Of a stretch of DNA of 64,000 nt, positions 47,501-64,000 are shown in pieces (position 1 is the first letter of the stretch; every line of letters begins with the position of its first letter). The DNA is from Candidatus Parcubacteria bacterium (GTDB lineage Bacteria; Patescibacteriota; Minisyncoccia; Phycocordibacterales; JAACPR01). The stretch covers positions 405-64,404 of the forward strand of contig JAACPR010000003.1 in the NCBI GenBank assembly GCA_009995365.1, in the 5' to 3' direction. Below the pieces are notes generated by a model. It did not search any database. It had not been told where the DNA came from and saw only the letters and a program-made list of their open reading frames with translations. A program made the position numbers and the translations under genes.

Positions 47501-47538
47501 CGCCTTTTTTTCTTTGACTTTTTTACTTATAAAATTTG

Positions 47539-47612
47539 TGCACCCAGCAGGACTCGAACCTGCGACCGCGGAGATATAAGCTCCGTGCTACTACCAACTG
47601 AGCTATGGGTGC
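47539..47612 (-). tRNA. tRNA with anticodon UAU (reads AUA, presumptive tRNA-Ile)
   Basis: Cloverleaf: acceptor GCACCCA/TGGGTGC, T-arm GCAGG-TTCGAGT-CCTGC, anticodon stem CGGAG/CTCCG with loop CUUAUAU. No encoded CCA. Confidence 0.75.
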
Positions 47613-53096: not shown

Positions 53097-53275
53097 AATA
53101 TATTTTTTTATATTTGAGTGGTTAGGGTCACTCCGATATTAAATTTTCACTGCGGTGTACTCGGGTATGGTACCCCACACTCCAAGCCTTGTAAGGGTAT
53201 TTTAGCATATTTCTGAAAGTGAAAATAAGGTTTGTGGGTCGGGAGTATATTTTTGTAAATGCTACAAATGAGACA

Positions 53276-54025
53276 CTAAAGAGGCTTCCCAGACACTGTC
53301 TCATTTACATCAAATTTCATTACAGTCATACGCTCAAGCTTTGTGCCTGCTTCTGGCAAGGCTTCTCTACGCTCCATATCAAAGATGAATCGTACGAACA
53401 GGTATACAAAGTCGAATGCCATAAACTCTCTCCCTTGCTCGTCCTTGAGCGGATAATAGCTGACTCGTGGGTTTTCTGATTTTTCGTTACTGCCCATGAG
53501 TATATAACCACTGAAATCTTTTTTACCGAGGATAATATCTCGCACCTCATCAAACCGTGGCGACAGGACAAAATCTCGTCCGTGATCAAGACACACTAAT
53601 TCATACCCAATTTTATACAAAGACCTCGCAAGAAGTTTTAATCGTTTCGCATCCATTTTTCTTGTACCACGAAAATCTAGTTTGAAACCTGTATCACTTT
53701 GATCTCGTACATGCTTCATAGTTTGAAGATGTATTTGGACGTGATCCTTGTCAGGGTTTTCTATTTTTAGATTTGGGAAATTGGCGACAGGAACTTTCCC
53801 TGATTTGCTTTCAATGCCATTCATGGTTCTCATGAATTTAATTCCCTCAAAATCAAGAAGTTCTGCATCAAGTTTTGATAATGTCTCGTTATTACAAGTA
53901 TCACAAACAAATCCTTTATCTAAAATCTTCTCTTTGTTACCGAGTGATTCAGGAAAAATATGCTCAACACTATTGAATGAGTTGGTTGTGCTTTTACAAA
54001 AGATACATTCTTGAATCGTTCCCAT
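53276..54025 (-). CDS. HNH endonuclease family protein
   Basis: CIFCKS...VEHIFPESLGN...CDTCNN (His-Me finger with zinc ligands). Confidence 0.7.
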   Translation of the reverse strand: MGTIQECIFCKSTTNSFNSVEHIFPESLGNKEKILDKGFVCDTCNNETLSKLDAELLDFEGIKFMRTMNGIESKSGKVPVANFPNLKIENPDKDHVQIHLQTMKHVRDQSDTGFKLDFRGTRKMDAKRLKLLARSLYKIGYELVCLDHGRDFVLSPRFDEVRDIILGKKDFSGYILMGSNEKSENPRVSYYPLKDEQGREFMAFDFVYLFVRFIFDMERREALPEAGTKLERMTVMKFDVNETVSGKPL

Positions 54026-54057
54026 ACGTACATTATATCTCGTATTTAAGGTAAAAT

Positions 54058-54669
54058 ATGCATATGAAGCGTAAGAAGCCAGAATTCATATATCCATTTA
54101 AAGACAAGGAACATGAGGAGTCATGTAAATTTATTGATATACGAAGAATGAATATGGTTTCTGACCGTAACTCAAAAGTTGAGCTTACCGAAACGGTATA
54201 CACTGGCGGATATCGAAAGGTTGAGTTGAAAGAAACAATCTACATCAAAAAAGGTAACGGTCAAAAACTTGGAGAATTACTTTACCTGCGACCCTACGAC
54301 CAGATGCGTATAAAAAAGTTAATTGATTTTGTGGTGTACATAAACAAGGATGGTGAAATGTTCCTAACGAGAAAAGATTACGCAAAAGAACCTCTCGATT
54401 TCACACCTGACCAACGAGCAATCATTAGATTATTTTACGAAAGAAAAAATGTAACTCTTGAAGATGCAGTATCTATTTTAGGGACTTACAAAAATACAGA
54501 GTCGCTAAGAGTAACCATACGAAAAATAAATCGTCGTGTTGTTGGACATTTTAAACTTACCGAACGAGATGAATTTATTAAAGGAGATTTTGATAGAAAA
54601 AGAAAAGGATACGCTTTCAACCCAGACATTAGACTTGAATTCATAGACGACAGAGTGCTCGGCGAATAA
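54058..54669 (+). CDS. Hypothetical protein, divergent from the HNH gene
   Basis: ORF of 203 aa with a downstream terminator. Confidence 0.4.
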   Translation: MHMKRKKPEFIYPFKDKEHEESCKFIDIRRMNMVSDRNSKVELTETVYTGGYRKVELKETIYIKKGNGQKLGELLYLRPYDQMRIKKLIDFVVYINKDGEMFLTRKDYAKEPLDFTPDQRAIIRLFYERKNVTLEDAVSILGTYKNTESLRVTIRKINRRVVGHFKLTERDEFIKGDFDRKRKGYAFNPDIRLEFIDDRVLGE

Positions 54670-54693
54670 GTGGAGTGGAAAAGTTTATAAAAA

Positions 54694-54716
54694 AGCCCGC
54701 AAATACGGGCTTTTTT
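54694..54716 (+). terminator. Rho-independent terminator (AGCCCGcaaataCGGGCT followed by T6)
   Basis: Canonical hairpin plus U-tract. Confidence 0.6.
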
Positions 54717-54773
54717 AGTATTTATATCCCTCAAAGTTACAGATTACAGCTTCTTTTTTAAGATCTATGCTCA

Positions 54774-56096
54774 ATGCAGATATACACATATCTACATTAT
54801 CAACTAACCAATATAACTATGAGTAAAAAATTAGTTTGGCATACGGAGAAACGTAAAGTGAAGGATTTGATTCGATACGAAAAGAATCCTCGAATACTAT
54901 CCCCGACACAACTTGAAGGACTCAAGCGGAGTCTTAAAAAGTTTGATCTGGCAGAATTGCCCTGCATCAACACAGATGGCACTTTAGTCGCTGGTAACCA
55001 GCGAGTGATGGTTCTGTCTCTTCTTGGTCGAGAGGATGAGGAGATTGAAGTGAGAGTCCCAAATAGACCACTTTCGGAAAAGGAATTTAAAGACTACCTA
55101 CTTACCTCAAATCGAAGTGGTGCATCTTGGGATTTTGAAAAACTTGCAAGAGATTTTGATCTCGATGAACTCCTTACTGCGGGTTTTGATTCATTTGATC
55201 TTTCAAATATTTTTGATGACAACCTCGAAGTAGATGACGATGATATTGATCTTGAAAAAGAACTCAAAGAAGCTCAAAAAACAGACATAAAATTGGGTGA
55301 CAAATTTTCACTCGGCAATCACGTTTTAATCTGTGGAGATAGTACTAAAAAAGAAACGGTTACTGAGCTAGTAGGTTCTGAGCGGATAGATCTAATCAAT
55401 ATAGATTTTCCATACAACATAGGCGTAGATTACTCGGCAGGATTAGGGGGTAAGCAAAATTACGGAGGAACTATTAATGATAAAAAATCAGATGCTGAAT
55501 ATAAGGAGTTTCTTGCAAGCATCTTAAAAAATGCACTAGAGATATCGAAGAACGACTGCCACGCTTTTGCATGGCTTGATGAAAAATATCTTGGAACGAT
55601 GCAAGATGTTTTCAAGACGGTCGGTATTGATTTCAAACGACTTTGCCTATGGGCAAAATCACAGCATAACCCAACTCCAAAAATTGCCTTTAATCGTGCT
55701 GTGGAACTATGTATGTATGGCGTGCGAGGAAAGCCTTATCTTTCCGACAAGATAAAGAATCTCACTGAGTTTCAAAACAAAGAGATATCTTCAGGAAATA
55801 GACTGATTGAAGATGTGTTGGACATGTTCCAGATATGGCTTGTGAAAAGATTACCGAGTTCCCAATACCTTCACCCTACTATGAAGCCTCCGACCCTATA
55901 CGAAAAAAGTATCAGGCGATGCAGTAAGCCCGGCGATGCAATTCTTGACCTGACAGCAGGGTCAGGGAGTCTTCTCGTGGCTTGTGAATCCCTCAAACGT
56001 CGAGCATTCCTTGCAGAGATCGAGCCAGTTTTTTGTCAGGTAATTATTAATAGATTTAAGAATATATCCGATGAAAAAGTCACCAAACTCAATTAA
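54774..56096 (+). CDS. ParB-like nuclease domain fused to a beta-class N6-adenine/N4-cytosine DNA methyltransferase
   Basis: N-terminal ParB/Srx-like (YEKNPRILSP...LVAGNQRV). Motif IV-like DFPY and motif I ILDLTAGSGSLLVACESLKR in beta-class order. Confidence 0.65.
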   Translation: MQIYTYLHYQLTNITMSKKLVWHTEKRKVKDLIRYEKNPRILSPTQLEGLKRSLKKFDLAELPCINTDGTLVAGNQRVMVLSLLGREDEEIEVRVPNRPLSEKEFKDYLLTSNRSGASWDFEKLARDFDLDELLTAGFDSFDLSNIFDDNLEVDDDDIDLEKELKEAQKTDIKLGDKFSLGNHVLICGDSTKKETVTELVGSERIDLINIDFPYNIGVDYSAGLGGKQNYGGTINDKKSDAEYKEFLASILKNALEISKNDCHAFAWLDEKYLGTMQDVFKTVGIDFKRLCLWAKSQHNPTPKIAFNRAVELCMYGVRGKPYLSDKIKNLTEFQNKEISSGNRLIEDVLDMFQIWLVKRLPSSQYLHPTMKPPTLYEKSIRRCSKPGDAILDLTAGSGSLLVACESLKRRAFLAEIEPVFCQVIINRFKNISDEKVTKLN

Positions 56097-56829
56097 ATAC
56101 GGGGATACATTTCAATTAGGATCGCACCTCTTGTTATGTGCAGACTCTCGCAACAAAGACATGGTCGCAAAGCTTGTTGGCAAGCATAAGATAAAGGCAG
56201 TGATATCAGACCCTCCCTACGGAGTGGCAGTAACTGAAAGCAAAGAAGGATTCAAAACACTCGCCAAGAATAAGCCAATCTTAAATGACCACCTACAAAG
56301 TGATCAGGAGTATAAAACTTTTTCTCGTGACTGGGTTGAAGCAATTCGACCACATCTTGATCGTAAGAATAGTTTTTATATCTTCAATTCAGACAAGATG
56401 ATATTTGCTCTTCGTGACGGAATGCACGATGCAGGATTAAAATTTGCACAACTACTTATCTGGGTAAAAACACATGCTGTTATTGGTCGAATGGATTACG
56501 CACCACAACACGAACTTATTGCTTATGGGTGGCATGGGACACATGAGTTCTTGAAATCAAAAGACAAGAGTGTTTTAGTCTGCCCAAGACCAAACAAAAG
56601 CAAGATGCACCCTTCGACAAAGCCGATTGAGCTTATTCGTAGACTCGTACTAAACAGCACCCGAATCGGAGATGTGGTGTTTGATGGATTTCTTGGATCA
56701 GGCACGACACTACTAGCATGTGAGCAAACAAAGCGTATGTGCATCGGAGTCGAGATGGATACTGAGTACTGTCAAACAATCATTGATCGTTTTGAAAAAC
56801 TCACCAACATCAAAGCGAAAAAACTATGA
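56071..56829 (+). CDS. DNA methyltransferase (beta-class N6A/N4C), paralog of the C-terminal half of the preceding gene
   Basis: DPPYG (motif IV) then FDGFLGSGTTLLACEQTKR (motif I). Its N-terminus IKYGDTFQLGSHLLLCADS parallels IKLGDKFSLGNHVLICGDS of the ParB-MTase. Confidence 0.75.
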   Translation: MKKSPNSIKYGDTFQLGSHLLLCADSRNKDMVAKLVGKHKIKAVISDPPYGVAVTESKEGFKTLAKNKPILNDHLQSDQEYKTFSRDWVEAIRPHLDRKNSFYIFNSDKMIFALRDGMHDAGLKFAQLLIWVKTHAVIGRMDYAPQHELIAYGWHGTHEFLKSKDKSVLVCPRPNKSKMHPSTKPIELIRRLVLNSTRIGDVVFDGFLGSGTTLLACEQTKRMCIGVEMDTEYCQTIIDRFEKLTNIKAKKL

Positions 56830-57257
56830 GTAGAAAAGATTCAATCAATGAGCGTCAAAGCAAAATCAGGGATGCACTTCTTGATCAGTTAAGGCGTACG
56901 CCAACGCTTGAAACCTCTTGTCAGAAGGTTGGTATTTCTCGTGCGAGCGTGTATAGGTGGATTGCAGGCAGTAAGAAGTTTGAGCGACAAGTTGATGAAG
57001 CATTAAATGACGGACGGAAATTCATGTCTGATATCGCTGAAAACCAACTCTTCTCTCTCATTGGTGACAAAAAAATAGAAGCTATCCGTTTGTATCTCTC
57101 AACTCATAATCCTCGATACAGCAACAAGCTTGAACTATCAGGAAGTGTTGAGACAAAAGAGAAACCACTTACGAAAGAAGAGAAAAAGCACATCCGTGCC
57201 GCCCTCAAACTTTCATCACTACGCAAACATGCCAAGTTTAAAGATACAAAGGAATAG
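56826..57257 (+). CDS. Terminase small subunit-like HTH protein
   Basis: HTH (TSCQKVGISRASVYRWIAGSKKF) immediately upstream of and overlapping the large terminase. Confidence 0.5.
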   Translation: MSRKDSINERQSKIRDALLDQLRRTPTLETSCQKVGISRASVYRWIAGSKKFERQVDEALNDGRKFMSDIAENQLFSLIGDKKIEAIRLYLSTHNPRYSNKLELSGSVETKEKPLTKEEKKHIRAALKLSSLRKHAKFKDTKE

Positions 57258-58689
57258 TGATGAGGATATCTTTGAGAAAATTCTTACAGATCAGGTCGTA
57301 AGAAAGCATACTGTACAAAATAGTTTTGAATTCTTCTTCCCGATATATTTTCATCAATACATGGAATATGAGACAGCACCCTTTCATGAGGAGATGTTTC
57401 GTATTCTTGAAGACGAGCAAATCAAGCTTGCGGTTTTTGTTGCATTCCGTGGATCAGCAAAATCAACCATCATCTCAACGGCATATGTCCTGTGGTCTAT
57501 TCTCGGAATTCAGCAACGAAAACTTATTGTCATTTGTGGTCAGACTGAACAGAAAGCACGGCAGTATCTTTTGAACATCAAGAGTCAACTTTTAAATAAC
57601 GAACTACTGAGAAAAGACCTCGGACCATTTGAAGAAGAAAAGAATAATCTCGGTAATGCCACTGCTCTTATTATCAAGCGACTCAATGTGAAGATAATGA
57701 TTAGCTCGGTTGAGCAAAGTATCCGTGGTATGCGACACGATCAATACAGACCAGACCTTATTATTCTTGATGACATCGAAGATACTAATTCAGTAAAAAC
57801 ACGAGCTGGGCGTGACAAGACATTTAATTGGCTTGTGAGTGAGGTTATTCCCGCAGGAACAAAGAAAACTCGCATTATTGCTGTGGGTAATCTTCTACAT
57901 GAAGATTCTGTATTGAAACGTCTGCAAAAGCGTATTGAAGGCGATGAAATGAGGCGTATCAAATCAGTCTATCGAGAATACCCAATCGTAGATGGAAAAG
58001 GTAATCCTTTGTGGCCCGGCAAGTATCCGACCATTGAAGACGTTGAGGCTGAAAGAGAAAAGACCATGAATGAGGTCGCATGGTTTCGTGAGTATATGCT
58101 CCAGATTATTACTACAGACGAGCAAATCGTATCTCCTGAATGGATCACATTTTATGACAAGATGCCTGCGGATGGATTCAGAAGTATCTGTATCGGTATT
58201 GATTTGGCGGTAAGTGAAAAAGATTCTGCTGATTGTACTGCTATTGTTGTTGCATATGTATACGGCACAGGAAAAAACATGAAAATCTATATTCAAAAAC
58301 ATCCCTACAACAAGAGAAGTTCATTTCCTGTACATGCAGAATTTATTAAAGCATTAGTAGCAACTGAAAAGTTAAAGCATAACCGAGTAAAGTTGTATGT
58401 TGAAGATGTTGGATATCAAAAGGCATTGATTCAATTCTTTGAAAGCCAAAAATATGACATTGAAGGGGTACCTACTGGTAGAAATGACAAAGGTGCACGA
58501 TTGCGACTTACAACTCCACTATTAAAGGATGGGAGGATTCTATTCCCTGAAAGTGGGTGTGAGGAATTAATTGATCAACTCCTTGGATTTGGAAAGGAAA
58601 AACACGATGATCTAGCTGACGCTTTTTCTATCGTGGTTCTTAAAATCATTGAGAACAATCCAGTTGCGGGTGGAATATTATTTGGTTAG
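57229..58689 (+). CDS. Phage terminase large subunit. The track ORF starts at 57130, but the likely start is MPSLK at 57229.
   Basis: ATPase Walker A VAFRGSAKST, Walker B LIILDD, and a C-terminal RNase-H-like nuclease region (ICIGIDLAVSEKDSADCTA...). Typical TerL. Confidence 0.7.
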   Translation: MPSLKIQRNSDEDIFEKILTDQVVRKHTVQNSFEFFFPIYFHQYMEYETAPFHEEMFRILEDEQIKLAVFVAFRGSAKSTIISTAYVLWSILGIQQRKLIVICGQTEQKARQYLLNIKSQLLNNELLRKDLGPFEEEKNNLGNATALIIKRLNVKIMISSVEQSIRGMRHDQYRPDLIILDDIEDTNSVKTRAGRDKTFNWLVSEVIPAGTKKTRIIAVGNLLHEDSVLKRLQKRIEGDEMRRIKSVYREYPIVDGKGNPLWPGKYPTIEDVEAEREKTMNEVAWFREYMLQIITTDEQIVSPEWITFYDKMPADGFRSICIGIDLAVSEKDSADCTAIVVAYVYGTGKNMKIYIQKHPYNKRSSFPVHAEFIKALVATEKLKHNRVKLYVEDVGYQKALIQFFESQKYDIEGVPTGRNDKGARLRLTTPLLKDGRILFPESGCEELIDQLLGFGKEKHDDLADAFSIVVLKIIENNPVAGGILFG

Positions 58690-58931
58690 TTCTCGGTACT
58701 TTTATTTTGACTATCTTGAGTTTTGTTTAAAGCTCTATCAAACATCTTTTCCATACGGTTTTGCATCTTATTTATGATGGGGGTCATAATGAATTTAACT
58801 TCTTTCATATAGAATTCTGCACCTTTCTTTGAGTCACCGTTAAAAACTCCGTAGATAACAGCAAGTATTACTGCACCAATCAATAATGCTCTTAAAATCT
58901 TTTTAGGTATGTTAAAGCTCCAATCATCCAT
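58686..58931 (-). CDS. Small membrane protein, hypothetical
   Basis: ORF of 81 aa with one transmembrane helix. Confidence 0.35.
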   Translation of the reverse strand: MDDWSFNIPKKILRALLIGAVILAVIYGVFNGDSKKGAEFYMKEVKFIMTPIINKMQNRMEKMFDRALNKTQDSQNKSTEN

Positions 58932-58932
58932 G

Positions 58933-59502
58933 TTAGTGAAATCTTAAACCACTCCTTTTTAGTTCTTCCTTAATCTCTAGATAATCAGGCATGGCTTTGG
59001 CTACCAGATTCCAAAACTTCTGAGAGTGGTTAAATTGTCCGAGATGACAGAGTTCGTGTACGACTATGTACTCAGCGAGACGTTCAGGTAGCAACGCAAT
59101 CTTATAGTTGAAATTGAGATTACCTTTTTTAGAACAGCTACCCCAGCGAGTCTTCTGGTTTTTGATATTAATTTTATTAAAGGAAAACTTGTATATCTTG
59201 TTGAATTTTTTGACCTTTTCCTCAGCCAAGACCAGAGCCTGTTCTTTATATTTTTGATACTCAACATTGGTATTTTTCTTTTTGAATACATCAGCAAACT
59301 GACTAAAGTAATCTAATTTATCGATGACCCATTGAGATCGCTGTATGATGAATTTCTCAATAACAGAAACATCAACATTTCTAGGGGTGGTCACAATAAA
59401 AGCACCGTCACAATAAATTGCGAGGCGGAGTCTTTTTGCTCGCTTACTTACCTTGAGCGTATATGGAACTTTTCTTTTGTGAAGTTCTATATGCTTTTTC
59501 AT
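58933..59502 (-). CDS. YgjP-like (DUF45/M48-family) metal-dependent hydrolase
   Basis: HELCHLGQFNHSQKFW motif. This family is commonly encoded next to type I hsdR. Confidence 0.7.
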   Translation of the reverse strand: MKKHIELHKRKVPYTLKVSKRAKRLRLAIYCDGAFIVTTPRNVDVSVIEKFIIQRSQWVIDKLDYFSQFADVFKKKNTNVEYQKYKEQALVLAEEKVKKFNKIYKFSFNKINIKNQKTRWGSCSKKGNLNFNYKIALLPERLAEYIVVHELCHLGQFNHSQKFWNLVAKAMPDYLEIKEELKRSGLRFH

Positions 59503-59504
59503 AA

Positions 59505-62417
59505 TTAGAATTTTTTAATTACCACATCAATGAGTCGGTTTAGGTATTTGTGGAAGTCAGAAATCTGAATCTTGCCTTTGTAATCCTTGAGGATTAATTC
59601 TTGTAGTGTTCTCTTTGCTTCTTTGATAAATTCTTCACGCTTTGAAGAATCTTGCCATCCTTCATCGAGCACATCTTCTAGTCGAGATGACATTTCCTTG
59701 ATGAATTCTTTGATAACAGTTTTATCAGATTCACCAATAAACTCCTCAGAAATAACAAACAGTCCGTATTCGTGAAGTGAGTATCCTAGTTCCTTAGCTT
59801 CTTCTGTCTTTGTCTTAATGTCATTAAGCAACTCGTAATATCGCTTGATACGCTCAGCGAGATCAATCTGATGTTTTTCAAATTCTTGTCTGATAGAAGT
59901 TAGTCGTTCCCCAAAACCTTTAAATGCAGGGTGAGTATCTATGTTAATAGATATTTCACGCTTAAGCATTTTCTCAAGGTTGAGAGCCTTGTCTTCTTCA
60001 GGAAGCTTGTCCAACTTATTAAGTGTTGCAAGGTCATGAACTGACAACTCACGGAAGTTTTTAGTGATTCCTTCGTAATCGATTTTGTCTTGAATAAGGT
60101 TTTTGATCTTCTCTCCATATTCGGCAAGAGAAAACGCATCAACTCCTTCTGGTTGAAATTCCTTACTAAAAGCAAGGTAGAAGCTAGTGATCCATTCAAA
60201 CTTTCGCAAGTACTCAATAAGGAATGGGTCAGGAGAAAGTATCTCAAACAACATCTTTAGGCGACTGTACTTATCTTTAAAGAATTGTTGTTTGCTCTGA
60301 TTGTCGATAAATATCTTTAGACATCGACGAAGATTATCGATTGAAGGGTCTTCGATATTAACTCCTTCAAATAGACTCATGACTTCATCGAGTACTTTTT
60401 TGAAGTCCTCCTTCAGTCTCTCGATGTTTATCATTGCACTATCAACAACACTCTCATCAAAGTTGAGTGCGTCATAAAGGTTTTTTGTCACACCATAATA
60501 ATCAATAATCTTTCCACATCCTTTATTTGGATAGACTCGATTAGTACGAGCAATAGCCTGAAGAAGATTATGATCTCGTAATGGCTTATCGAGATACATA
60601 ACCTGTTCAACAGGTGCATCAAAACCAGTCAAAAGCATGTCACAGACCAATAGGAATTTTAGAGGATGAGATGGGTCTTTGAATTGCTCAATGATTTTCT
60701 CTCTCTTCTGTTTATTAGTGTTGTATTTCTTAAGATCATCACTATCACTATTTGGATCCGCCGGAGAATACACTACCTCAGACCATTCAGACGGCACAAG
60801 CTTGTCTAGTAGGTCTTTATACTTTGCTGTCGCTTCACGGTCATAACATACAATCTGTGCTTTAAATCCATTAGGCATGACGTAGAGCTTGTAATGTTCA
60901 ACAATATCTTGTATGACAGCCTCCATTCGCTTCTCTAACTTTACAAGTGCTTCTTTCTTTCCGTATCTCTTTGTAAGAAGTTCTTTTTGTTCCTTACTAA
61001 GTTCAGCGGTCAGTTCATTAAATTTCTTATCTACGGTTTCCTCATCAATAAAGAATTTTGATAGCCGTGCCTCGTATGTAACAGGTAAAGTAGCACCATC
61101 ATCAATGGCTTGCTGAATTGAATAGTAGTCTAGATATCGCTCTCCCTCTTCACCAAAGTTACGATGAGTGTTGATCGTCAACTTATCAATAGGAGTTCCT
61201 GTAAATCCAAAGAAGAACGCATCCTTGAATGCATTACGCATTTTGATAGCAGATATACCTTCGTTGTCTCGATGGGCTTCATCAGATAAAACAATCACAT
61301 TGCCATCGATACTTTCTATTTCCTCAAGCTCTGTAAATTTCTGAATAGTTGAAATGAAGATACCTCGGTCAGCCCCTTTGATTTTCTTTTCAAGGTCTTT
61401 GCGAGACTCAACACGAATAAGATTTTGACCACCCCATGCTTCAAACTCTTCAAATACCTGATCATCAAGATCAATACGGTCGATAAGGATAAATACTTTT
61501 GGGTTCTTTAGTTCAGGAGCATAGCGAAGCTTCCATGCAGTGAAAAACATAGTAAGGGTCTTTCCTGATCCTTGTGTATGCCAAATCAGACCTTTCTTAT
61601 AGTCGCCATCTTCAACTCGCTGAACAATTTTATTGGTTGCATAAAGTTGCTGATAGCGAGCAATCTTTTTTGTGATTCCGTCCTTTTTCTTTTCAAAAAC
61701 AATAAAGTTCTTCAGGATATCGAGAAGCTGTTCTTTTCCAAATAGGAAGTAGAGGGTTGAATCTAATTCATCCTCAAACATCTTTGGCTCATTATGTGGA
61801 TCTTCTCGCCAAGTCAAAAAGTATTGCTTTGGAGAATAGGTTGCTCCGTAGACAGTCTTAAGTCCATCGGTCGCAATGTTGAAACAGTTTGGCAAGAATA
61901 GCTTGGAGGCAACTTTTTCGTATCGCTTAATCTGATCAATAGCATTCTCAAAACTTACTGAGCTAGAAGCGGTAGGGCTTTTAGCCTCAATATCAGATAC
62001 TGGTAAGCCGTTAAGGAATATCATTACATCAGGACGGATGTTCTCTGTCGTACCTTCAAAATAGAACTGGCTTGTTACAACAAATCGATTGTTGTCAGGG
62101 TTTGTAAAATCAACAATTTGAAAATCACGGTTCTTGCCAGTGGCAGGATCCTTGAGGTTAACCCCGTTTCGCATTGCAAAAAGAAATGCTTCGTTGGTAT
62201 CCAGTTTCTTTATTTCTCGAACAACACTTAAAGCCAAATTTTCATCAATGCCGTTTATTTTCTGAACAGACTCTAGTAAATGAGAAGTAATTATGAACTC
62301 GTTTTCAAAAGTACGAAGCTTTGAAAATTCTTCGGCAGGAATAAATTCATAGCCAAGATTTTCTTGGATGAATTTAATGATATGTTTTTCTATTGTATAT
62401 AATTCGTTGAATTTCAT
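59505..62417 (-). CDS. hsdR: Type I restriction enzyme R subunit
   Basis: 970 aa. Helicase motifs HTQGSGKTLTMF and VLSDEAHR, with N-terminal nuclease and C-terminal helical domains. Confidence 0.9.
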   Translation of the reverse strand: MKFNELYTIEKHIIKFIQENLGYEFIPAEEFSKLRTFENEFIITSHLLESVQKINGIDENLALSVVREIKKLDTNEAFLFAMRNGVNLKDPATGKNRDFQIVDFTNPDNNRFVVTSQFYFEGTTENIRPDVMIFLNGLPVSDIEAKSPTASSSVSFENAIDQIKRYEKVASKLFLPNCFNIATDGLKTVYGATYSPKQYFLTWREDPHNEPKMFEDELDSTLYFLFGKEQLLDILKNFIVFEKKKDGITKKIARYQQLYATNKIVQRVEDGDYKKGLIWHTQGSGKTLTMFFTAWKLRYAPELKNPKVFILIDRIDLDDQVFEEFEAWGGQNLIRVESRKDLEKKIKGADRGIFISTIQKFTELEEIESIDGNVIVLSDEAHRDNEGISAIKMRNAFKDAFFFGFTGTPIDKLTINTHRNFGEEGERYLDYYSIQQAIDDGATLPVTYEARLSKFFIDEETVDKKFNELTAELSKEQKELLTKRYGKKEALVKLEKRMEAVIQDIVEHYKLYVMPNGFKAQIVCYDREATAKYKDLLDKLVPSEWSEVVYSPADPNSDSDDLKKYNTNKQKREKIIEQFKDPSHPLKFLLVCDMLLTGFDAPVEQVMYLDKPLRDHNLLQAIARTNRVYPNKGCGKIIDYYGVTKNLYDALNFDESVVDSAMINIERLKEDFKKVLDEVMSLFEGVNIEDPSIDNLRRCLKIFIDNQSKQQFFKDKYSRLKMLFEILSPDPFLIEYLRKFEWITSFYLAFSKEFQPEGVDAFSLAEYGEKIKNLIQDKIDYEGITKNFRELSVHDLATLNKLDKLPEEDKALNLEKMLKREISINIDTHPAFKGFGERLTSIRQEFEKHQIDLAERIKRYYELLNDIKTKTEEAKELGYSLHEYGLFVISEEFIGESDKTVIKEFIKEMSSRLEDVLDEGWQDSSKREEFIKEAKRTLQELILKDYKGKIQISDFHKYLNRLIDVVIKKF

Positions 62418-62418
62418 G

Positions 62419-63561
62419 TTATTTGGTTCTTACTTTTCCACTCAAGAGATCTGCCATTAACCCTTGCTTAAGCTCTGATAATTTAAATTTTAAGTTTTCG
62501 CTAATTAATATCTTGTTATCAATAGAAGAAATAATCTCGGCTATTTTATGTTGTTTTTCTAAATCAGGAACTGGGATAAAGGTATCTCTGATAACAGCTT
62601 GCGATATATTCGGTTGAGCAGCACCAGTTGCTTGATTAACAAAATCTTTTGTTATCGTCAGTAAAAATTGATACAAAAATTCTGGATAAAATTTGTCATT
62701 CGGCAAAACTCCACAAATTGCTTGATTCGTTGAGGATTCAAAATCTAATAAACCAACCTGTCCTGCGGTTGCACCATACATTGCAATAAGAATTGTATTA
62801 CGAGGAAATACTTTTGCTGATGAGTCTTCCAAAGCCTGTTTTGTAATAAATTGTTTTGATGTGCTTACATGACCCTGACGAACTTCACCGCTTGTTAACC
62901 AAGGGATTGTTCCATTTTCGTAGTATTCTCGCTTACTTTTTAGCGGAGTCCCTCCAGAACTAGTTACGCAAACATCTCCGAGTCTTACCCATTTCTCATT
63001 TTTCTCATTTATATACTCAGAAAAAATCTTATGAGTAAGGGATGTCTTGAGTCTTTTGGTTGCATTAATAATTTCACTAATTTTAGTAATATTGTCATCA
63101 ACCGCACTCAAAATATCTGCTATCTTCCTCTGTTCTTTAATTGAAGGAATGACGATATCTAGTTCTTGGTATTGCGAAATGTAATGTCGCTTATGGTTAG
63201 CGATTGGGAAAGTAAAAGATTTCATGATCTCATAAACAAATTTGAGGTCTGTGTTCTGGTCTCGGTTCGTGAGAATTTTTATTGCGGAAGATTTTACCTT
63301 AAATGGGAAATCGACATATTTACTATCAGTAGTAAAATCATCAAAAATAATTGCGGGAGTATCCGTATACACACCATCAGTTTCGTTTGTGTAACCTAAA
63401 ACAAAAGACTTGTTAGCTGTGAGTACAGCCGTCTTTCCTGTAGTGGTGTAACTTGAGCTTTCAACAATATATTTTGTTGGTTGCTCAAAATCCAAAAGAT
63501 CCTTAATCTTCTTTACGCTCCAATCCTTAGGAATATTCTTTTGTAATAAGTTAGTCTTCAT
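62419..63561 (-). CDS. hsdS: Type I restriction-modification specificity subunit (two target-recognition domains)
   Basis: Duplicated target-recognition-domain architecture with conserved central and C-terminal helices (LSELKQGLMADLLSGKVR). Confidence 0.85.
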   Translation of the reverse strand: MKTNLLQKNIPKDWSVKKIKDLLDFEQPTKYIVESSSYTTTGKTAVLTANKSFVLGYTNETDGVYTDTPAIIFDDFTTDSKYVDFPFKVKSSAIKILTNRDQNTDLKFVYEIMKSFTFPIANHKRHYISQYQELDIVIPSIKEQRKIADILSAVDDNITKISEIINATKRLKTSLTHKIFSEYINEKNEKWVRLGDVCVTSSGGTPLKSKREYYENGTIPWLTSGEVRQGHVSTSKQFITKQALEDSSAKVFPRNTILIAMYGATAGQVGLLDFESSTNQAICGVLPNDKFYPEFLYQFLLTITKDFVNQATGAAQPNISQAVIRDTFIPVPDLEKQHKIAEIISSIDNKILISENLKFKLSELKQGLMADLLSGKVRTK

Positions 63562-63563
63562 AA

Positions 63564-63998
63564 TTAGTCATGTGTTTTTACTACCTCAAAATCGTGTATC
63601 GCATCTTTTAGGGCCACAGCACGGTCAATGTATGTATTGTGGTTGGCGATAAAATCTTCCCATTTAACTGGATGTGCATAGGAATGGTCCCACCCATGGT
63701 GGTGATATCCGTAGCAGGTATCACACAGTGAATGATTCTTATCTTTCCTGTTGAACATATTATTCTTTATGATGTTAAAGAAGTTTTGAGTTTGCCAACT
63801 TCGAACACCACAAGGTCTATCGATTACCGCATGATCGTAACTACCGTTACTATCTGGTAATGCGACTAAAATTAGACCATTTGTCCAACTTGTTTTTTCT
63901 CCACGTTGTTGAACTCGCAAAGAATAAGAAATCTCATTTGGAATCCATTGTTCTTCTTGAGGTTCGTAAGCATCAATCATGTTTGGAGAGAGAAGCAC
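63564..63998 (-). CDS. Hypothetical Cys/His-rich protein immediately upstream of hsdS. It may continue beyond the window edge.
   Basis: ...DRPCGVRSW...CDTCYGYHHHGWDHSYAHP... The start at 63998 is 2 nt from the window end. It does not look like HsdM. Confidence 0.3.
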   Translation of the reverse strand: MLLSPNMIDAYEPQEEQWIPNEISYSLRVQQRGEKTSWTNGLILVALPDSNGSYDHAVIDRPCGVRSWQTQNFFNIIKNNMFNRKDKNHSLCDTCYGYHHHGWDHSYAHPVKWEDFIANHNTYIDRAVALKDAIHDFEVVKTHD

Positions 63999-64000
63999 GA

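Follow-up and report, generated by a model that had tools for sequence, protein, structure and literature searches.

The stretch of genes presented here, taken from a 64,000-nucleotide segment of a Candidatus Parcubacteria bacterium chromosome (contig JAACPR010000003.1; the whole segment is hereafter called the window), is the left two-thirds of a 15.2-kb integrative mobile element. Its core, comprising a ParB-like domain fused to a DNA methyltransferase (MTase), a second MTase, and the small and large terminase subunits TerS and TerL, is followed by cargo genes and, past the window end, by a large serine recombinase, and the same capsid-less arrangement recurs among the Patescibacteria, or Candidate Phyla Radiation (CPR). 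That these loci represent a discrete family of capsid-less integrative elements is, in our judgement, very probable. The explanation favoured as a whole, with a rough probability of 0.55, is that of a satellite-like integrative element whose own terminase loads it into helper capsids.

Boundaries of the element

The same contig is present in many public assemblies, with the loci designated L005, L179, and L180 reaching 8.4 kb beyond the window end (L numbers denote related loci throughout). On the left, three assemblies were found by alignment to turn homologous at GCGGTGTACTCGGG, placing the junction at 53151|53152. Three differing flanks precede it, namely an ABC-F gene in the window, a nucleoside deoxyribosyltransferase-like gene in L003, and an unrelated terminator in L052; the left flank of the window is common to L011 and L012. 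The 30-nt arm before the junction is alike in the window and L003 despite the different surrounding genes, which is the appearance expected of an attB arm recognised by the recombinase. On the right, the junction coincides with the stop codon of the recombinase, approximately 4.4 kb past the window end, L006 and L005 being 99.95% identical to that point and unrelated after it. Taken together, the left and right junctions from the sister contigs set the length of the element at 15.2 kb, from 53152 to approximately 68365 in extended coordinates. A three-domain large serine recombinase at one end and discrete junctions with differing flanks, the two hallmarks of an integrative element of the large-serine-recombinase type, are thus both in evidence. 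The gene for an HNH endonuclease, an adjacent open reading frame (ORF) termed orf203, and the whole block of restriction-modification (R-M) and TIR genes lie inside this one discrete element, the features of which are as follows (gene calls are longest ORFs under translation table 11, and are crude; extended coordinates are from L005).

53122..53151, no strand: left junction, chromosomal half (attB-type arm), ending ...TTTTCACT, just past the ABC-F terminator hairpin
53152..53275, no strand: left end of the element (GCGGTGTACTCGGGTATGGTACCCCACAC...), approximately 125 nt, conserved by alignment, non-coding, presumed attP-derived arm
53276..54025, minus: HNH_5 endonuclease, 249 aa, accessory (PF14279, E 2.6e-11)
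54058..54669, plus: orf203, 203 aa, accessory, no family match (ORF call)
54688..54717, plus: intrinsic terminator, 12-bp stem and T run, between orf203 and the core operon
54819..56096, plus: fusion of ParB-N and beta-class N6_N4_Mtase, first core gene (PF01555, E 1e-24; phrog_498, E 1e-79; phrog_620, ParB-like, E 2e-21); an alternative start at 54774 would give a product of 440 aa
56071..56829, plus: second N6_N4_Mtase, optional core gene (PF01555, E 1e-31)
56826..57257, plus: TerS-like helix-turn-helix protein, 143 aa (PF13022, E 8e-8; phrog_24579, 'terminase small subunit', E 3e-8)
57229..58689, plus: TerL, 486 aa (phrog_38, E 7e-83; Terminase_6C, E 5e-7; TIGR01630 above cut-off)
58686..58931, minus: predicted membrane protein, 81 aa, first cargo gene (ORF call)
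58933..59502, minus: YgjP-like metallopeptidase, cargo accompanying the type I R-M genes (PF01863, E 7e-44)
59505..62417, minus: HsdR, 970 aa, cargo (HSDR_N, SWI2_SNF2, ResIII, and T1R_D3 domains)
62419..63561, minus: HsdS, cargo (PF01420, E 1e-43)
63564..64000, minus: ThsB-like TIR protein, C-terminal two-thirds of 231 aa, running past the window end (PADLOC ThsB, E 2.6e-64)
64263-64685 (extended): PDC-M50A, 140-aa membrane protein (PADLOC, E 5e-41)
64690-65181 (extended): ThsB/PDC-M50B TIR protein, 163 aa (PADLOC PDC-M50B, E 1e-61)
65186-66928 (extended): MerR-HsdM, starting 1.2 kb past the window end
66989-68365 (extended), same strand as TerL: large serine recombinase, right end of the element (Resolvase, Recombinase, and Zn ribbon domains)
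68346-69725 (extended; L005 2693-4072), convergent with the first: second large serine recombinase, split into two ORFs

The genes of L005 after HsdS thus run in the order ThsB-like, PDC-M50A, ThsB/PDC-M50B, MerR-HsdM, serine recombinase, and split recombinase, followed by host genes for a DUF5652 protein, a ComF-like phosphoribosyltransferase, and PilM. Portal, capsid, tail, and lysis genes were found on neither side of the element in the Pfam gene tables of the window and sister contigs. From these junctions, the circular form is predicted to join the recombinase stop codon to GCGGTGTAC, the attP junction to join the last 30 nt or so of the recombinase ORF to GCGGTGTACTCGGGTATGG, and the empty attB to read ...GATATTAAATTTTCACT joined to the right flank.

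The second serine recombinase lies tail-to-tail with that of the element in a 20-nt overlap, its ORFs being of 171 aa and 276-279 aa, and is probably the relic of another element that once used the same site. The right flank of L006 holds a different, uncharacterised ORF instead. At 11591-11734 of L011, the left flank of the window is found up to ...TTTTCACT and is then succeeded by unrelated sequence (TGATGTGTACCCC...) until the contig end; either a different element occupies this attB or the strain has undergone rearrangement. L011 was considered and rejected as an empty site because its tail matches neither right-flank variant, and no empty attB was recovered.

Several other ideas about the junctions were likewise discarded. 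No tRNA or tmRNA gene that could have served as an integration target lies at the junction, the nearest being the tmRNA at 43.4 kb and a tRNA-Ile at 47.5 kb. The 125-nt left end has no Rfam match to indicate a structured RNA, and its fold z-scores are -0.3 and -1.4. A right junction inside the recombinase ORF was suggested by the fading of nucleotide homology approximately 40 nt before the stop codon, which proved to be divergence of a C-terminal motif conserved at the protein level. Neighbourhood to recG as a favoured place of insertion is seen in 3 loci only. A search for inverted-repeat symmetry of the element ends, or for a B' arm near the second recombinase, returned weak matches only.

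Methyltransferases and terminase of the core

A first-pass annotation of the window had listed the HNH endonuclease, the ParB-MTase, the second MTase, TerS, and TerL, followed by YgjP, hsdR, and hsdS, and every one of these genes is present, those from HNH to TerL at 53276-58689. It had also regarded the two MTases as paralogous beta-class enzymes, one of them fused to ParB, as is borne out by their 30% identity (E 6e-33) and by the position of motif IV (DxPY) before motif I (FxGxG) in both. Each exceeds the Pfam PF01555 cut-off of 26.7 bits, with scores of 87.7 and 110.8. The short MTase bears the motifs DPPY ... FLGSGT, and its gene overlaps both neighbours. Motif IV of the ParB-MTase reads DFPY, a variant found in the minority (7 of 98 sequences); family-wide, the fusion protein carries DPPY, DPPF, DLPF, or DFPY at this position and the short MTase mostly DPPY. 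Owing to DFPY at the catalytic motif, the activity of the window ParB-MTase is uncertain, and the fusion may have altered or reduced activity. Homologues of its ParB-N part occur in 105 loci.

The protein encoded directly upstream of terL, with a 29-nt overlap, is small and has an N-terminal helix-turn-helix, as expected of a TerS, and by sequence comparison it matches four PHROG 'terminase small subunit' families (phrog_24579, phrog_4044, phrog_4102, and phrog_1482) at E 3e-8 to 4e-5. TerL combines an ASCE ATPase, complete with Walker A and B motifs and catalytic Glu, with an RNase-H-like nuclease in a two-domain fold. Its Walker A (AFRGSAKST), Walker B (RPDLIILDDIED), and nuclease acidic residues (D325, E392, and D460/D461/D464) are invariant among 19 sequences, and its TIGR01630 score is 44.6 bits against a cut-off of 41.65. 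The best PDB fold matches to its AlphaFold2 (AF2) model (mean predicted local distance difference test score, pLDDT, of 69) are all large terminases, the modelled fold appearing closest to those of PhiV-1, T7, T4, and D6E at E 5e-15 to 3e-9. The remaining companion of a packaging terminase, a portal-containing procapsid encoded in the same genome, was found neither in the 109 loci of the TerL clade described below nor in the surroundings of the window element.

A capsid-less family across the Patescibacteria

A homology search with TerL scored 8000 candidates, of which 3062 proteins reached E<=1e-5. The best 120 relatives are 65-99% identical and approximately 480-495 aa long, on contigs of up to 1 Mb, and wherever a source is named it belongs to the Patescibacteria (Nomurabacteria, Parcubacteria, and others). 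With one genome per species, at least 542 stretches were confirmed as TerL relatives by tblastn, and the best 80 of them alone span at least 15 named CPR lineages. When ORFs were called and clustered in 82, and then in 163, loci, just four families were recurrent, namely TerL, MTase, TerS, and a serine recombinase of approximately 445 aa, the next family being found in no more than 17-20 loci. Their order is fixed, with the ParB-MTase followed by an optional short MTase, TerS, TerL, cargo, and recombinase, and the core genes all lie on one strand. The median core span is 5.6 kb; the cargo comprises no called gene in 32 of 73 loci and up to 10 in others. Hidden Markov model (HMM) searches of unfiltered ORFs in the 109 clade loci recovered TerL in 109, TerS in 108, the MTase in 105, and the recombinase in 86. 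Of 83 loci, 14 have the gene for a LexA/CI-like S24 repressor placed divergently upstream of the ParB-MTase, and in one metagenome-assembled genome (MAG) it is duplicated with the element.

The relationships of 162 TerLs were examined in a neighbour-joining distance tree, drawn without support values, as the first-pass annotation had proposed. The smallest clade with all recombinase-linked TerLs comprises 121 leaves, none of them portal-linked, and all 24 portal-linked TerLs fall outside this clade. Consistent with this, HMMs of portal and capsid proteins built from sister phages gave 44 ORF matches in 41 phage loci but none in the 109 cassette loci.

One sub-clade carries two tandem TerL paralogues (L069 9911-13104, L076 9929-13106, L081 9944-13060, L095 9926-13048, and L105 3809-6938), its members being Peribacteria/Peribacteraceae, one Saccharimonadia genome, and several IMG/VR contigs. 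The two copies share 53-57% identity, and both have intact ATPase and nuclease motifs and are under purifying selection, with an omega of 0.015-0.05.

Some carriers bear genome titles of Gammaproteobacteria, Bdellovibrionales, or Lentisphaerae. L067 is identical to the Magasanikbacteria contig L066 over approximately 10 kb, L065 is 84% identical to L086, and L074 matches L078, such that contigs titled 'uncultured Gammaproteobacteria' or 'Bdellovibrionales' pair with Magasanikbacteria or Patescibacteria contigs. The taxonomic labels of that third-party-annotation MAG series look unreliable for CPR genomes. Since the match between L066 and L067 renders the non-CPR labels doubtful, occurrence outside the Patescibacteria is not claimed.

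Selection and horizontal spread

The ratio of non-synonymous to synonymous substitution (dN/dS), estimated for the window against L003 or L052, is 0.02-0.06 for all genes (TerL 0.025, TerS 0.058, MTases 0.02-0.045 with the second MTase at 0.04, HNH 0.05, and orf203 0.02), denoting strong purifying selection. The element family is functional and horizontally spread, and is not decaying. TerL is 72-73% identical between the window and L016, as against 36% for RecG of the same pair. A 2.9-kb MTase-TerS-TerL block is 100% identical between L016 (8737-11632) and L023 (717-3612), from two different Patescibacteria genomes, with unrelated DNA on both sides, which suggests that modules were exchanged very recently at fixed break points, of which one lies approximately 170 nt after terL; the ParB-MTase of L016 is truncated. 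Two copies of the cassette occur in one MAG, and two different members share one 25-kb contig. The TerL designated P0005 is a chimera with a last third identical to the window TerL, and looks like a recombinant. The cassette has a GC content of 0.39-0.41 compared with approximately 0.33 for the genome. TerL and recombinase identities co-vary (Spearman 0.34, Mantel p 0.001).

Relation to phages and known mobile elements

The first-pass annotation had called the module phage-derived and had noted that no capsid or portal gene follows the terminase. The latter holds for the window and the extended contig alike, and the former is upheld by the gene order of phages. In Streptococcus phage Javan213 (MK448704), the late operon begins with ParB-MTase, TerS, TerL, and portal, the ParB-MTase being approximately 30% identical. 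The IMG/VR contig L135 (IMGVR_UViG_3300029288_007077) displays the order MTase, TerS, TerL, portal, and capsid, with a TerL 41% identical to that of the window and an MTase and TerS that cluster with those of the cassette. This shared order identifies the core as the opening three or four genes of a late operon of the siphovirus type. In siphoviruses, TerL is followed by the portal, a scaffold or protease, the HK97 capsid, and tail genes, whereas in the cassette it is followed by cargo and the serine recombinase, with no structural gene within 10 kb on either side in the 109 loci. The core was captured from a phage a single time and has propagated since, a serine recombinase standing where a phage has its structural genes.

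The closest deposited phage TerL is just 22-28% identical. Among IMG/VR contigs, those with a TerL at least 42% identical to that of the window are the cassette, while a TerL at 33-41% marks a genuine phage and is succeeded by a portal (Phage_portal and Mu F, E 3e-64) and an HK97 capsid. Approximately 30 IMG/VR 'viral' contigs (L100-L128, L133, and L134) are this capsid-less cassette, some with two copies, and were presumably catalogued as viral because of the terminase.

Phage satellites, including phage-inducible chromosomal islands (PICIs), capsid-forming PICIs (cf-PICIs), P4-like elements, phage-inducible chromosomal minimalist islands (PICMIs), and marine virion-encapsidated integrative mobile elements (VEIMEs), resemble the cassette in being small and integrated, with an integrase and phage-derived packaging genes (TerS in PICIs). 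A repressor in some members, defence-loaded hot spots, and the absence of a full virion gene set are further points in common. The cassette differs in its large serine, rather than tyrosine, integrase; in that no primase, replicase, or capsid-remodelling genes were found; in its invariant core of TerS, TerL, and one or two MTases; and in its host phylum, the Patescibacteria, for which no satellites are described in the open-access literature searched. A satellite or phage-inducible island had been among the possibilities listed in the first-pass annotation. It remains the best-fitting of those options. An integrase (of the serine type) and packaging genes are present, and a repressor in a subset; the replication module that defines PICIs has no match among the recurrent families, and the element is therefore not filed as a PICI.

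The staphylococcal cassette chromosome (SCC), mobilised by Ccr recombinases, is likewise a cargo cassette with site-specific junctions and a large serine recombinase at its end, lacks a transfer apparatus of its own, and undergoes tandem accretion at the same site. The best NCBIfam match of the recombinase is CcrB (E 1e-32), at 113 bits far under the family cut-off of 900. SCC elements, however, lack a core of terminase or ParB-MTase, and their insertion site is rlmH. Gene transfer agents (GTAs) and defective prophages such as RcGTA and PBSX share with the cassette a phage-derived terminase kept under selection in a cellular genome. GTAs nevertheless retain a complete cluster of head and tail structural genes at one fixed position in the chromosome, whereas the cassette is mobile and multi-copy and is devoid of such a cluster.

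Proposed mechanism and competing explanations

In the satellite-like mechanism, the serine recombinase would integrate the element and, with a putative directionality factor, excise it. Infection by, or induction of, a helper phage would lead to expression of the operon, which in some relatives would be held behind the LexA/CI-like cleavable repressor. The helper would probably belong to the related portal-bearing clade with TerLs 33-41% identical. The two MTases may methylate the DNA and thereby protect it from the defences, chiefly R-M, of the next host. TerS would recognise a site on the element, and TerL would cut there and dock on the portal of the helper procapsid, whereupon the DNA of the element would be packaged together with its cargo. 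This could compete with the packaging of the helper's own genome, with interference as a by-product. For the hijacking of helper capsids taken by itself, the odds are put slightly short of even.

A number of observations weigh against this mechanism. Packaging into helper capsids is a step that we infer, and elements of 4-6 kb would need to be packaged as multimers or with flanking DNA. The conservation of TerL across CPR classes would require similarly conserved helper portals, or else very recent spread. Two selected TerL paralogues are not predicted by a homo-oligomeric packaging motor. No recurrent family among the clustered loci represents a replication module, no excisionase and no pac or cos site was identified in the family, and a search of short contigs for terminal repeats yielded no circular or excised forms. 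The recombinase is out of reach in 23 of the 109 loci, mostly at contig ends, although some of these, such as L016, truly have none within 10 kb.

Foremost among the rivals is a terminase-based defence or R-M-like module with a chiefly anti-phage role. TerS and TerL would form an ATP-driven nuclease-translocase, directed by sequence, by which invading phage DNA is cut or mis-packaged; the MTases would mark self, and the recombinase would confer mobility only, as in other defence islands. In its favour, the MTases are tightly and translationally coupled to a nuclease-ATPase, the cassette sits among defence genes and carries defence cargo, CRISPR is rare in CPR bacteria (PMC6509639), and the two retained TerL paralogues fit a non-packaging role more easily. 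Yet the MTase-TerS-TerL order is inherited from real phages, such that no R-M explanation is needed for it. Moreover, were the MTases a constitutive mark of self, the repressor found in 14 of 83 loci would keep the genome from being methylated. PADLOC has no match for TerL or TerS, and no terminase-based defence was found in the open-access literature searched. On account of the phage-inherited gene order and of the members behind a cleavable repressor, this explanation is disfavoured and regarded as unlikely.

Only slightly less plausible is the proposal that ParB-MTase/MTase-TerS-TerL constitutes a self-sufficient machine rather than a capsid hitch-hiker, a terminase repurposed in the CPR as a methylation-gated, ATP-driven nuclease-translocase. 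Such a machine could represent a novel type of defence or addiction system, or else serve to pump DNA at the interface between episymbiont and host, and the serine recombinase would merely spread the cassette. The old and selected TerL duplication in one sub-clade hints at a hetero-oligomeric, non-packaging motor of this kind.

Mobilisation of DNA other than as a satellite, by in-situ packaging or export of adjacent chromosomal or cargo DNA in a manner akin to lateral transduction, would make the cassette a driver of gene transfer in CPR populations. The very small core without replication genes, the cargo that always lies downstream of TerL, and the identical MTase-TerS-TerL block with differing downstream cargo in L016 and L023 are in keeping with this. 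The sharp junctions and terminal serine recombinase, however, show that the unit itself integrates, and TerL and the recombinase co-vary. Helper capsids would still be needed, so that this improbable alternative overlaps with the satellite-like mechanism.

A decaying prophage that has lost its structural genes, another of the options first listed, would account for phage-derived genes without portal, capsid, or tail and for the neighbouring recombinase split into two ORFs. It is nonetheless rejected as very improbable in view of the purifying selection on every gene, the catalytic motifs that are all intact, the defined junctions, and the recurrence of the same capsid-less architecture in 109 loci with a monophyletic TerL clade. 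The notion that the module belongs to a complete prophage continuing past the window, the outcome by which the first-pass annotation would have been overturned, has nothing beyond the presence of TerS and TerL to commend it and is refuted, with ABC-F, a hexapeptide-repeat gene, DapB, and RecG upstream and, in the further 8.4 kb of L005, L179, and L180, ThsB/PDC-M50 genes, the hsdM that completes the R-M system, two serine recombinases, and host genes.

Accessory genes, cargo, and host flanks

The first-pass annotation had taken an HNH endonuclease next to the terminase genes as the hallmark of a cos-type packaging module. The HNH_5 gene in fact lies on the opposite strand, 2.8 kb from terS and separated from it by orf203, the terminator, and the two MTases, an arrangement other than that of an HNH-dependent cos module. 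Its homologues are confined to 4-5 of approximately 160 related loci (L003, L005, L052, L102, and a weak one in L041), and its PADLOC matches are PtuB-like and weak. The HNH gene is a rare accessory of this sub-lineage and not a cos-packaging partner. The product of orf203 has no match in Pfam, PHROG, or NCBIfam and only 32 homologue clusters among 5.8 billion. Its AF2 model (pLDDT 80) finds no PDB fold counterpart at E<0.001; in the model, a beta-sheet domain seems to precede a C-terminal part of three helices that may be a winged helix.

All the genes that separate TerL from the recombinase are exchangeable cargo. The R-M locus is therein adjacent to the terminase, as first described, but is not a separate locus into which the module runs, being cargo between TerL and the element's own recombinase. 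Homologues of the 81-aa membrane protein occur only in L003, L005, and L052. YgjP and HsdR of L003 differ from those of the window, and HsdS is the variable part between sister elements, the homology gap against L003 and L052 falling there. The type I R-M cargo is complete, with hsdR and hsdS in the window and, beyond its end, an hsdM fused to a MerR domain at its N-terminus; the last ORF of the window (63564-64000) encodes the ThsB-like TIR protein and is not hsdM. The operon is split between hsdS and hsdM by the three TIR/PDC-M50 genes (window 63564-64000 and beyond; L005 7237-8854), a candidate defence system nested within the R-M operon.

Across the loci of the family, the interval between TerL and the recombinase holds 84 non-redundant proteins, dominated by R-M parts (type I, type III, and type IIG) and nucleases. 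They include ResIII helicases (8), type I N6_Mtase proteins (4), type III MTases (4), and MmeI-type IIG enzymes (3), together with PLD/NgoFVII and SNase nucleases. Hachiman (HamA and helicase), reverse transcriptase, SAVED, and Mrr genes are also found in the flanks. The type I R-M system of the window, with its PDC-M50/TIR insert, is one instance of this defence-rich pattern.

The window is otherwise a chromosome segment with a GC content of approximately 33%, carrying a ribosomal-protein operon, tmRNA, RecG, and DapB; its deposited proteins are NCBI NCS98766-NCS98826. At 47538-47612, ARAGORN called a tRNA-Ile with a UAU anticodon (written 'tat'). The bacterial decoder of AUA is usually a tRNA with a CAU anticodon modified to lysidine.

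Significance

The CPR, or Patescibacteria, accounts for a large share of bacterial diversity. To our knowledge, its members mostly have no CRISPR, and very few mobile elements or phages have been described from them. No description of a cassette of terminase, MTase, and serine recombinase, in the CPR or elsewhere, was found in the open-access full text searched. The present element type is compact, conserved, and easily recognised by its terminase, MTase, and serine integrase in the absence of capsid genes, and it has been examined in more than 100 loci from many CPR classes, with hundreds more genome and protein matches beyond these. It is also a source of false 'prophage' and 'viral contig' calls, as dozens of IMG/VR contigs are this cassette. 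The family offers compact serine integrases with mapped junctions, and constitutes a natural experiment on the role of a terminase once separated from capsid genes. It would be the first candidate satellite family for the CPR radiation, and a vehicle that could explain the movement of R-M and other defence genes between these tiny genomes.

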